DNA from: a virus
Virus genome (UHGV): UHGV-0110205
Length of the DNA stretch: 10,816 bases
Reading direction: 5' to 3' (one strand)
Shown: positions 2,486 through 10,816 of the stretch, piece by piece
Layout of the letters: each line of letters opens with the position of its first letter
How positions within the stretch are numbered: the stretch's first letter is position 1
The notes under the pieces: model-generated
Seen by the model: the letters and a program-made list of their open reading frames with translations, nothing else
The model's database searches: none
What the model was told of the DNA's origin: nothing
Made by a program: the position numbers and the translations under genes

Positions 2486-2494
2486 ATTATAACA
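2486..2494 (-). promoter_or_regulatory. Candidate extended -10 promoter (TGTTATAAT) for the 80-aa gene
   Basis: Reverse complement of 2486-2494 is TGTTATAAT (TGn plus perfect TATAAT). Lies in a 126-bp AT-rich intergenic stretch, about 30 nt upstream of the SD/ATG of the 2455 gene. No good -35. Confidence 0.25.
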
Positions 2495-4640: not shown

Positions 4641-4934
4641 TCAGTCATTACTGATAGCGCCATAGCGTGAGCGGTAATTACGCAGGCGCGGGTCAATTTC
4701 AGGGAAGTGGGTATATGTGGCTTTGCGGAATGGTCGGATTGATGTCTGGTAAATTCGATCGCGTTCTTCTTTCTCTGCAAGCCATATACAGTGGCGAAAT
4801 TCCTTTTCCTCTTTCGTTTCCTGCGGTAGCGACATTATTCGATCGTAGTTTTTTCTGAATTTATCCAGCACCTCCGATACGGAATTGCCGGAACAGCGGC
4901 GCGCGTCGTCCGCACCATACAGAGGCGCTGGCAT
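4641..4934 (-). CDS. abc2: Abc2-like anti-RecBCD protein (recalled similarity to P22 Abc2)
   Basis: 97-aa [29 protein letters not shown]...; AAGGA 7 nt upstream of ATG 4934. Located downstream of erf/ssb as in P22-type recombination modules. Family assignment is from memory. Confidence 0.6.
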
Positions 4935-4957
4935 AATGGAATCCTTATGTTGCTACT

Positions 4958-8475: not shown

Positions 8476-8506
8476 GCCCTTCTTCAGGGCTTAATTTTTA
8501 AGAGCC
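8476..8506 (-). promoter_or_regulatory. nutL (boxA + boxB) N-utilisation site
   Basis: Minus strand reads GGCTCTTAAAAATTAAGCCCTGAAGAAGGGC. boxB GCCCTGAAGAAGGGC is identical to lambda nutL boxB; boxA GGCTCTTA is one mismatch from CGCTCTTA. Confidence 0.7.
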
Positions 8507-8545
8507 TCACCTTCATGGTGGTCAGCGCGTCCTGCTGATGGCTAA

Positions 8546-8574
8546 ATAGTACGATTTGTACTTTATCGAGTCAA
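8546..8574 (-). promoter_or_regulatory. PL early-left promoter (-35 TTGACT, 17-bp spacer, -10 TACTAT)
   Basis: Reverse complement of 8569-8574 is TTGACT and of 8546-8551 is TACTAT. Faces nutL and N. Spacer contains the palindrome AGTACgatttGTACT. Confidence 0.5.
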
Positions 8575-8620
8575 TACAAAATGTTCTAAATATAACTACT
8601 TTTTTATAACGCTTTGTATT
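8548..8620. promoter_or_regulatory. Candidate OL operator sites (15-bp AGTAC-N5-GTACT type)
   Basis: Perfect palindrome AGTACgatttGTACT at 8548-8562. Degenerate copies AATACaaaatGTTCT (8573-8587) and ATAACgctttGTATT (8606-8620), spaced 25 and 33 bp. Same motif class recurs at OR. Confidence 0.35.
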
Positions 8621-8635
8621 TAATGGGTTTATATT

Positions 8636-8669
8636 TTGGAAAAAGAAAACCCGACGCTAAGGTCGGGTT
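8636..8669 (-). terminator. Rho-independent terminator downstream of the repressor gene
   Basis: 8-bp stem aacccgac/gtcgggtt (8648-8655, 8662-8669), 6-nt loop; minus-strand U-tract uuucuuuuucc (revcomp of 8636-8647). 30 nt after the cI stop. Confidence 0.55.
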
Positions 8670-8699
8670 ATTGTTGTGTGTTTTAGAGTTGTGAGGCTG

Positions 8700-9359
8700 T
8701 TAACTAAATGTCTCTTCAGGCCACTGGCTGGCGATAACTTTCCCTACTACGGAACAGCTATCATTGCATGGAATCATTGGATATTGCGGGTTTAGTGGTT
8801 GTAGAAACACCTGACCGCTATCCCTGATTAGTTTCTTGAAGGTAAACTCATCACCTCCAAGTCTGGCTATGCAGAAATCACCTGGCTCAACAGCCTGCTC
8901 AGGGTCAACCAGAATTAACATTCCGTCAGGAAAGCTTGGCTTGTAGCCTGTTGGTGCGGTCATGGAATTACCTTCAACCTCAAGCCAGAATGCAGAATCA
9001 CTGGCTTTTTTGGTTGTGCTTACCCATTTCTCCGCATCGCCTTTGGTAAAGGTTCTAAGCTCAGGCGAGAACATCCCGGCCTGAACATGAGAAAAAACAG
9101 GGTACTCATATTGTTTTTTAACGGGGGCAGATGAGTATTCGCCAACAGGTGAAAATGTACCGTCGTGGTTGAATGAGACGTTATCAATACCAAGGTATTT
9201 AAACACCACACCAATCTCGTCAAGAGATGGATGACGAGATCCGCGCAACCAGTGACCAATTCCACCCTGCGTCATACCAAGCTCTTCAGCTAACTTCTCT
9301 TGAGTTATGCCGAGCTCTTTCATTCTGGATCTAGCCAGTTCATACCATTTCATTTTCAT
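8700..9359 (-). CDS. cI: Prophage repressor, CI-like (N-terminal HTH plus C-terminal LexA-type S24 autopeptidase domain); not lambda immunity
   Basis: From ATG 9359 ([37 protein letters not shown]...): XRE-type HTH; C-terminal domain with Ala-Gly (HVQAGMF), Ser (EGNSMTAP) and Lys (FTFKKL). Start could be 9353 or 9401. Divergent from cro. Confidence 0.9.
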
Positions 9360-9368
9360 ACCCTTATT

Positions 9369-9442
9369 ATTACGCTCTGTACTAAAACCATCCATGCACA
9401 AGATGTATTTTTTGTTTGCATTCTAAAAGTACATATCGTATT
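9369..9442. promoter_or_regulatory. Candidate OR operator sites (same 15-bp motif class as OL)
   Basis: TTACgctctGTACT (9370-9383), TGCACaagatGTATT (9394-9408), AGTACatatcGTATT (9428-9442); spacings 25 and 34 bp. The last overlaps the PR spacer and -10. Confidence 0.35.
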
Positions 9443-9444
9443 AT
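9416..9444 (+). promoter_or_regulatory. PR early-right promoter (-35 TTGCAT, 17-bp spacer, -10 TATTAT)
   Basis: TTGCAT at 9416-9421 and TATTAT at 9439-9444; about 27 nt upstream of the cro ATG; SD GGAGGG at 9462-9467. Confidence 0.5.
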
Positions 9445-9470
9445 TGTTTCATGGTTACTATGGAGGGCAT

Positions 9471-9686
9471 ATGAGCAACCTACGAAAATATCGAGAGTCA
9501 CTGAATATCTCTCAAACAACACTTGCTAAGGCAGTTGGATGCACACAGGGAGCTATCGGACATTGGGAATCTGGTCGTCGCTTCCCAGACCTTAAAACAT
9601 GCCGTGCTCTTGTTGAGTGCCTAAACAAGTTAGGCGCAAAAGTCAGTCTTGATGACGTGTTCCCGCCGGAACACAAAGCCGCTTAA
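9471..9686 (+). CDS. cro: Cro-like HTH repressor
   Basis: 71 aa from ATG 9471 (MSNLRKYRESLNISQTTLAKAVGCTQGAIGHWESGRRFP...), XRE-type HTH. GGAGGG 4 nt upstream. The ORF-track N-terminal extension crosses the operator region and is rejected. Confidence 0.85.
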   Translation: MSNLRKYRESLNISQTTLAKAVGCTQGAIGHWESGRRFPDLKTCRALVECLNKLGAKVSLDDVFPPEHKAA

Positions 9687-9694
9687 GACATTCC

Positions 9695-9726
9695 CGCTCT
9701 TACACATCCCAGCCCTGAAAAAGGGC
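9695..9726 (+). promoter_or_regulatory. nutR (boxA CGCTCTTA + boxB GCCCTGAAAAAGGGC)
   Basis: Both elements match lambda nutR as recalled; located just after the cro stop. Confidence 0.75.
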
Positions 9727-9750
9727 ATCAAATTAAACCACACCTATGGT

Positions 9751-9770
9751 GTATGCATTTATTTGCATAC
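9751..9770 (+). promoter_or_regulatory. Lambda-like tR1 / cII leader region with 7-bp inverted repeat (gtatgca-N6-tgcatac)
   Basis: Sequence 9727-9805 appears identical to the lambda nutR-tR1-cII leader as recalled (ATCAAATTAAACCACACCTATGGTGTATGCATTTATTTGCATACATTCAATCAATTGTTATCTAAGGAAATACTTACAT). Confidence 0.35.
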
Positions 9771-9805
9771 ATTCAATCAATTGTTATCTAAGGAAATACT
9801 TACAT

Positions 9806-10084
9806 ATGCAACTTACAAGTACTCGCAAGAAAGCGAATGCAATTACAAGCAACATCCTGAATCGAATTGCTGTACGTGGTCAGCGAAAGGTTGCCGACGC
9901 GTTAGGGATTAATGAATCGCAAATTTCGCGATGGAAAGACAGCTTCATCCCCAAAATGGGAATGCTTCTGGCTGTTCTTGAATGGGGTGTTGAAGACGAG
10001 GAGTTGGCGGAACTGGCTAAGAAAGTAGCCAGAATGCTGACAAAAGAAAAAGCCCCGAAGAACGGCGAATTCTTCGAGGCCTAA
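9806..10084 (+). CDS. cII: CII-like transcriptional activator
   Basis: 92 aa from ATG 9806 with lambda-identical SD AAGGA; C-terminal ISRWKDSFIPKMGMLLAVLEWGVEDEELAELAKKVARMLT parallels lambda CII; N-terminus diverges. Confidence 0.85.
   Translation: MQLTSTRKKANAITSNILNRIAVRGQRKVADALGINESQISRWKDSFIPKMGMLLAVLEWGVEDEELAELAKKVARMLTKEKAPKNGEFFEA
9839..9852 (-). promoter_or_regulatory. TTGC-N6-TTGC direct repeat (candidate CII-binding site / PRE -35 region)
   Basis: Minus strand reads TTGCttgtaaTTGC, inside the 5' end of cII as in lambda PRE. Distance to the lambda-like -10 (AAGTAT near 9790-9800) is longer than in lambda. Confidence 0.25.
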
Positions 10085-10108
10085 TGTAGAAAGACTGGAT
10101 CAATCCAC
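10042..10108 (-). ncRNA. oop: OOP-like antisense RNA (candidate) with pO -10 and intrinsic terminator overlapping the cII 3' end
   Basis: Minus strand has TGtCATAAT extended -10 (revcomp of 10116-10124); 5' region GTGGATTGATCCAGT resembles lambda OOP GTTGATAGATCCAGT as recalled; hairpin cgaagaa/ttcttcg (10056-10076) then cuuuuucuuuug. Confidence 0.45.
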
Positions 10109-10118
10109 AGGAGTAATT

Positions 10119-10286
10119 ATGACAAAACGTCGTAAGAAATACCAGGAAAAAGAAGAGATTCGACACCCTGATTCACCTGAGGGATTAGTGGTAGCCGCAG
10201 CAAATAACAGGGCGTTCGCAGAGCGCCTTGTTGGTGTTTACAGACTAGCCAAAGCAGGAGTGAAACATGGGCGTCGTTAAGTTAGC
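10119..10286 (+). CDS. Candidate 55-aa ORF starting at the lambda-O-like start codon context
   Basis: CAGGAG 5 nt upstream of ATG 10119 (AGGAGTaATTATGACAAA matches the lambda O start context); MTKRRKKYQEKEEIRHPDSPEGLVVAAANNRAFAERLVGVYRLAKAGGETWASLS. Overlaps the rep gene start by 19 nt. Confidence 0.3.
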
Positions 10287-10816
10287 TGATTACAGGCATA
10301 ACCCTGTACAACATCAGGAGGCATCCAGTATGGGGTATGTCTCTATACACCGCCAGTTTATGGACAGCAGGCTCTATAAGGACTCTCAGGCAGTACATCT
10401 TTGGCTTCACTTAATCCTCAAGGCTAATCACGAATCTACTGTCGTCAATACGGATATCGGTCCGATAACTGTTGATCGCGGTCAGATGATAACTGGACGC
10501 CCGTCGCTGGTCAGAGAAACATTCATCCCCGACAACAAAGTTCGGAGCTTATTACGGACTTTTGAGTCGAAAGGGATGCTTAATATTTGCTCGATGGGGA
10601 AGAAATTTAGCCTGTTTACAATCGTTAAATATGACGATTTTCAGGCAAAAAATTGTCCAACGGTTGTCCAACGGTTGTCCAACGCAAACACCAGTAATGG
10701 CGCGGCTCTCAGCGGAGATTGTCCAACGGTTGTCCAACGGTTGTCCATAAACAATAATATAAATAATATCTCTAATACTGACGTATTAGAGAGTGCCACA
10801 GCAGATAAAAAGTCTG
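10268..10816 (+). CDS. O-like replication initiator, N-terminal part (runs off window end); contains ori iterons
   Basis: Open frame from ATG 10268 (AGGAGG 6 nt upstream) to window end, 183 codons, no stop. Alternative start ATG 10331 also has an SD. Missing from ORF track because it has no stop. Confidence 0.8.
10654..10790 (+). repeat. Replication origin: six 11-bp direct iterons (TTGTCCAACGG) in two triplets plus AT-rich region
   Basis: Iterons at 10654, 10665, 10676, 10720, 10731 and 10742 (last degenerate TTGTCCATAAA), separated by a 33-bp spacer, followed by aaacaataatataaataatatctctaatact. Lambda-ori-like architecture inside the initiator gene. Confidence 0.7.

Follow-up and report, generated by a model that had tools for sequence, protein, structure and literature searches.

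A predicted oop antisense locus of the short P22/BTP1 form at the cII end of a mosaic lambdoid phage genome

OOP RNAs of lambdoid phages and the setting of the locus

In phage lambda, the 77-nt OOP RNA (unit pO-oop-tO) forms a duplex with cII mRNA, which leads to the RNase III-dependent loss of that mRNA and favours lytic growth; this chain of events has been shown in lambda only. The tail of lambda cII that is overlapped by OOP is dispensable for activity. Other lambdoid phages carry oop beside different replication modules (lambda O, P22 orf48-18 or the HK97 gp53-type), as was described for 21-23 of them (Hayes 2012; Clark 2001). A consensus for the conserved block of these 21-23 phages, Sf6 among them, was given by Hayes et al. 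2012 (Fig. S1).

OOP RNAs are also described from Salmonella phages. In the Salmonella prophage BTP1, transcriptomics revealed an ncRNA that lies antisense to the cII 3' end and is called OOP-BTP1 (Owen et al. 2020, PMC7067206); exact OOP coordinates were not found in the supplements of that paper. For P22, a 2026 sRNA-seq study (PMC13397905) reported P22C-oop, a 63-nt minus-strand RNA with the sequence GAUUGAUCCAGUCUUUCUACAUCAGGCCUCAAAACUGUUCCCGCAGUCUUGAGGCUUUUCUUU. The P22 RefSeq record NC_002371 annotates both a 'promoter, oop' and a 'terminator, oop' at positions homologous to those discussed below, and in phage L a minus-strand terminator is annotated at the equivalent position.

The DNA studied here is a 10,816-nt stretch of the UHGV virus genome UHGV-0110205, and this whole stretch is referred to below as the window. 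Its layout is that of a mosaic lambdoid early region (integrase ... N, cI, cro, cII, a small ORF and an O-like gene), and any one phage record covers at most 53% of it. The 600 bp surrounding the oop locus share 99.5-99.7% identity with Shigella phage Sf6 and Escherichia phage Huey. As in other lambdoid phages, oop lies here between cII and the replication module, is directed opposite to pR, has the 33-bp block across its promoter -10 and 5' end, and reaches a terminator 60-80 nt from its start. The oop locus in the window is a real feature, and one that is already known; oop goes unannotated in the majority of the phage records carrying this allele (Sf6, HK542, mEp213, ES18). Overall, we consider it very probable that the locus is a lambdoid (Sf6/HK542/P22-like) pO-oop-tO antisense unit in the short P22/BTP1 form, its effect on cII being proposed by analogy. 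The features on which this reading is built are collected in Table 1.

An earlier note, made from the letters of the window, had proposed an OOP-like locus conserved despite a non-lambda replication gene. The term 'non-lambda replication gene' holds only in part. The immediate neighbour is the 53-aa ORF, which starts 34 nt beyond cII and for which no Pfam match was found; the gene after that is an O-like initiator, of another allele than lambda O.

Table 1. Positions of the features of the oop locus, numbered from the first letter of the window
Feature	Position	Strand	Basis or remark
cII-like gene	9806..10084	+	Phage_CII PF05269, E = 1.8e-42
Predicted oop-like antisense RNA, ~63-67 nt	10042..10108	-	homology and covariance model
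Predicted target, 3' end of cII mRNA (codons for ..KEKAPKNGEFFEA and stop)	10042..10084	+	fully complementary to the RNA
U-tract UUUUUCUUUU	10042..10051	-	first two U able to extend the stem
Terminator hairpin tO, 12-14 bp, loop UCGCC	10050..10082	-	inside the last cII codons
Short 5' helix, RNA nt 1-5 with 19-23	10086..10108	-	predicted fold; where lambda has the long stem-loop I
33-bp conserved block	10094..10126	.	spans the pO -10 and the 5' end of oop; includes the next gene's Shine-Dalgarno and ATG
CTG-N10-CAG palindrome-like site, candidate LexA box, CTGTGGATTGATCCAG (minus)	10095..10110	.	pattern match
DnaA-box-like CAATCCACA, 7/9	10101..10109	+	overlaps the candidate LexA box
Extended -10 of pO, TG-T-CATAAT (TGTCATAAT)	10124..10116	-	same sequence as the -10 region of lambda pO
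Weak -35-like hexamer CTGGTA of pO	10140..10145	-	3/6 to TTGACA, 18-nt spacer; inside the 53-aa ORF
53-aa ORF	10119..10280		phrog_1331, function unknown; counterpart of Sf6 gp42 / HK97 gp53
O-like initiator gene	start 10267		phrog_345; allele differs from lambda O

Several other elements were seen around the locus. A perfect 8-bp GC-rich hairpin at 8648-8669 (AACCCGAC...GTCGGGTT), with T-runs on both strands, forms a bidirectional terminator-like site upstream of a cI-like repressor gene (8700-9401, minus strand). Mapping from the Sf6 annotation placed a nutR-like site at ~9695-9726 and a tR1-like hairpin, TGTATGCA-TTTATT-TGCATACA, at 9750-9771, and a TTGC-N6-TTGT site for CII binding (pRE) overlaps the cII start at ~9815-9828. 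Six copies of the 11-bp iteron TTGTCCAACGG lie within the O-like gene (10652-10758), arranged as two triplets with 66 bp between them; the equivalent stretch is labelled a putative replication origin in the Sf6 record.

Promoter, conserved block and predicted RNA

The minus strand of lambda 37900-39700 was aligned directly with that of the window, a check that the earlier note had proposed. The oop/pO region does align: 29 of 32 positions are identical from the -10 region through oop nt +14, while past nt +14 nothing alignable was found between the two. Thus, the close likeness to the 5' region of lambda OOP that the earlier note had described is borne out from the -10 region to nt +14 and is lost beyond it. 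Lambda oop itself (38675->38599; 776->700 of L004) folds into the long stem-loop I followed by the terminator.

The extended -10 noted earlier on the minus strand is indeed there. It is closely interwoven with the next gene: its CAT is the start ATG of the 53-aa ORF read on the other strand, and this ORF also provides, in its first codons, the TG and the -35. The pattern TGNYATAAT has three matches in the window, where 0.73 would be expected; the other two belong to the early-left region, at 2486-2494 (minus) and 4929-4937 (plus), reading TGTTATAAT and TGGCATAAT. A consensus promoter scan of the locus missed pO. Taken together with the poor -35, this means that pO would have to work as an extended -10 promoter, with CTGGTA presumably serving as its -35.

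In 324 tabulated related loci, CATAAT stands 7 nt from +1 in 311 and is replaced by TATAAT in three more, and 264 of the loci have the TG two bases upstream of the -10. It is also important to keep in mind that the block holds the start codon and the Shine-Dalgarno sequence of the next gene, so its conservation is no specific evidence of a promoter. Relatives that do not have the TG of the extended -10 (L211, L214, L245, L234) often have a better -35 (TTGAAA, TTGAAT, TTGTAA), whereas the -35 of TG-bearing relatives often matches the consensus at only 3/6. The loss of TG against a better -35 looks like compensation within a real promoter, with ~17 loci fitting neither pattern. Lambda pO was reported to reach full activity only with ~94 bp of sequence upstream of oop, which the window does not share. 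The strength of pO in the upstream context of the window, presumed by analogy, would be the least secure step of our reading.

The conserved block matches the consensus of Hayes et al. 2012, ACTGGATCaATCcACAGGAGTaATTATGaCAAA, at 33 of 33 positions. It is the same element as bsq5, the 'sequence 5' of Clark et al. 2001, and the Sf6 record AF547987 labels its equivalent 'bsq5; boundary sequence', not oop; this name refers to the role of a recombination joint and not to a promoter or an RNA 5' end. The various types of oop body and cII tail (lambda, a lambda loop variant, a third 'B' type, the type of the window and the P22 type) each occur with several downstream genes, namely lambda O, the 53-aa ORF and the 48-aa orf48, and the type of the window is found beside a 214-aa ORF as well. 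Since the block is a known mosaic joint of reassorting cII and replication modules, its conservation beside a non-lambda gene is unsurprising. The first 11-15 nt of the RNA (AUUGAUCCAGU, DNA 10094..10104) are invariant among phages of Escherichia, Salmonella, Shigella, Klebsiella, Yersinia and Erwinia, although this segment does not code for protein and its surroundings all reassort.

The +1 of the RNA (G at 10108) was placed by homology to the +1 of lambda oop (38675). A minus-strand RNA of ~67 nt, antisense to the 3' end of cII, had been claimed in the earlier note, and our prediction agrees with it: the span 10108->10042 (67 nt) folds at -27.1 kcal/mol (z = -4.97), with none of 200 shuffles as stable, and would overlap cII by 43 nt, that is, by 13 codons and the stop. 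The predicted RNA is also complementary to the 24-nt spacer beyond cII. At its 5' end, a short helix appears in the predicted fold (Table 1); with covariation in just one of its five pairs, we do not claim it as a conserved helix. The cII stop (10083) is TAA in the window and TGA in nearly all relatives with the same allele, TAA being otherwise found in only two loci; this corresponds to U versus C at RNA position 26, in an unpaired linker.

The terminator and its conservation in relatives

The strongest call of a terminator scan over 8500..10816 was a 14-pair stem at 10082..10050 with TTTCTTTTGT after it. The hairpin and U-tract that the earlier note had placed over the last cII codons are thus in their place, but the stem has 12-14 bp instead of the 7 bp proposed there. 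A search for related loci with the cII protein gave only sequences of at least 98% identity, and hence no diversity was gained from it; the comparison set came from two DNA-pattern scans of viral contigs and from ten diverse phage records chosen across a tblastn spread. Downstream of the conserved block, the set contained 151 distinct 90-mers, and in 123 of these a T-run follows a hairpin at least as stable as -8 kcal/mol. Among the other 28, there are 8 that the finder could not score and that still have a hairpin, followed by a poorer T-run.

A large subgroup of Klebsiella-type loci (L218, L224, L253 and similar ones) has the stem GAAAGCCG...CGGCUUUC followed by GCCUUUC or GCCUUUU, a poor U-tract. 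The annotated cII is shorter in this subgroup (73 aa in ST11-VIM1phi8.1). Termination in these loci may be weak or may work differently.

RNAalifold, applied to 41 sequences of the short class, found 12 pairs, and compensatory double changes were present in 12 of 12. In this alignment, 91.8% of the cells are paired; column shuffles gave 65.7%, and none of 500 came as high. These counts come from related sequences and hence are not independent events, although the distinct stem solutions are nevertheless many. Sliding the partner by 1-3 columns lowers pairing to 35-59%. Read from the sequences, such a pattern indicates selection for an intrinsic terminator on the minus strand. That the overlapped tail is dispensable in lambda cII fits the free changes of the tail here, which keep the stem. 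The 41-sequence alignment, with all its pairs compensated, would be sufficient to seed an Rfam family of the short class.

A covariance-model search had also been proposed in the earlier note. We built the model from 33 sequences, leaving out the window and all sequences with its terminator allele, and it gave a single match in the window, at the predicted RNA (10043..10108, minus strand; 59.3 bits, E ~4e-17). The same model scored 53.2 bits with BTP1 and 8.3 bits with lambda oop. Keeping in mind this low lambda score, the absence of stem-loop I and the unalignable body, we dropped an assignment of the locus to the lambda type. Rfam 15 yielded nothing at the gathering score in the window, with chance-level matches only at E<=10, and no match at E<=1 in the oop region of lambda itself. 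As even lambda oop is unmatched, Rfam 15 is without an oop family, and the empty result for the window carries no weight.

It might be argued against this that no RNA is made at all: the block would be only a ribosome-binding site, a start codon and a recombination joint, and the hairpin would be incidental to the cII tail. The next gene does draw its GGAG and ATG from the block, the block does lie at a mosaic joint, and the -35 is weak. However, the 12 stem pairs covary while the peptide of the cII tail varies (..RPAATERSEQIQMEF, ..SPAATEDFKQIDMQF, ..APKNGEFFEA, ..PQDCGNSFEA and others), and the U-tract is on the minus strand only. Moreover, the 11 nt from the cII stop to the ribosome-binding site, ATTGATCCAGT, are non-coding and yet invariant in 41 of 41 aligned relatives, and transcripts of near-identical sequences are known from BTP1 and P22. 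We therefore regard a locus without any RNA as highly improbable. We likewise give very little credence to a hairpin that would operate in the pR mRNA on the plus strand, for example by stabilising the transcript, serving in its processing or causing a pause at the cII end. An equally strong stem would form in the sense RNA, where 82.5% of the cells would still pair, but this is below the 91.8% of the minus strand, as 63 G-U cells turn into A-C mismatches. In addition, the relatives have no T-run on that strand (mean of 1.3 T in the 8 nt past the stem, versus 5.2 on the oop strand), and the ends of the P22 RNA map to the minus-strand U-tract. A plus-strand mRNA element was rejected on the G-U asymmetry and the missing T-run.

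Proposed role and comparison with known systems

We propose that the pO-oop-tO unit of the window would act as an antisense unit in the following way. The host sigma-70 RNA polymerase would start at TGTCATAAT, overlapping the start codon of the 53-aa ORF, and leftward transcription from ~10108 would halt at the intrinsic terminator in the last cII codons, leaving an RNA of 63-67 nt. By analogy with lambda, RNase III might cut the duplex of this RNA with the mRNA; CII synthesis would then drop, and the decision would be shifted toward lytic growth. The firing of pO against convergent pR transcription may also modulate the expression of the replication genes. We infer the production of the small RNA in the phage of the window from its BTP1 and P22 relatives, while promoter activity in this upstream context, cleavage by RNase III and the effect on CII are presumed by analogy.

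Transcription from pO might itself be the main job of the locus, with the RNA as a by-product or a minor antisense. In that case, leftward transcription would collide with or modulate the pR transcription that runs into the replication genes and, together with DnaA or LexA sitting immediately past the start, would tune the initiation of replication. In lambda, pO activity alters plasmid copy number via interference with pR, and the oop RNA itself has little effect on replication; pO is followed by two DnaA boxes, and a LexA site was reported in oop-pO. OOP was also found to be only minor in lambda prophage induction, in the removal of CII after the SOS response sets in. The window retains CTG-N10-CAG and a 7/9 DnaA-box-like sequence within a segment that is invariant across several host genera. 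However, a role of pO transcription alone leaves unexplained the constant end in the cII tail and the covarying terminator 60-77 nt away, and overexpressed OOP clearly abolishes CII activity in lambda. Such a main role thus appears rather unlikely to us, though it deserves some weight, and the antisense and pO-transcription roles are compatible rather than exclusive, the LexA and DnaA sites of the window being candidates.

We would also like to comment on the invariant 5' segment. CTG-N10-CAG has one match in the window against 0.21 expected, and at least one match was seen in 38 of 200 shuffles, so the site is not significant alone. One could speculate that the segment is a conserved operator in which a LexA-type site overlaps a DnaA-like box, or else a conserved seed; we find this doubtful. 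An operator, if it is one, would tie the firing of oop/pO to the SOS response or to the replication status across these phages. With a seed, the RNA would have a host target in trans in addition to its cis-antisense action on cII.

Coming back to the antisense unit, the locus resembles lambda OOP in its orientation, in its target (the 3' end of cII) and in the intrinsic terminator placed within the dispensable cII tail. The mechanism is presumably shared as well, with cII mRNA lost through RNase III once the antisense duplex has formed. In contrast, lambda OOP overlaps cII by 55 nt and has a long stem-loop I (AUCCAG/CUGGAU), and the window has only a 5-bp helix at the 5' end, a 43-nt overlap and a terminator of unrelated sequence. 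In lambda, pO lies directly within gene O, whereas in the window the upstream half of the promoter lies in the 53-aa ORF.

As judged by sequence, the oop of the window is of the short P22/BTP1 type, which is nearer to it than lambda oop. The hallmarks of this type are all present: a predicted length of ~63-67 nt and a 5' end GUGGAUUGAUCCAGUCUUUCUACAU, followed directly by the terminator hairpin GGCCUC...GGGGCU. The BTP1 sequence is identical to the predicted RNA at 65 of 67 positions and shares its terminator allele, and the P22 oop RNA is collinear with it, with a compensated stem. In P22, too, a small ORF separates oop from the O-like gene: orf48, located between c1 and gene 18. The differences concern the surroundings: the upstream half of the promoter is of the orf48 type in BTP1 and P22 (-35 TGGTCA, 4/6) and of the 53-aa ORF type in the window (3/6); the cII body is only 56% (BTP1) and 86% (P22) identical to that of the window; and the cII stop is TAA in the window versus TGA in BTP1 and P22.
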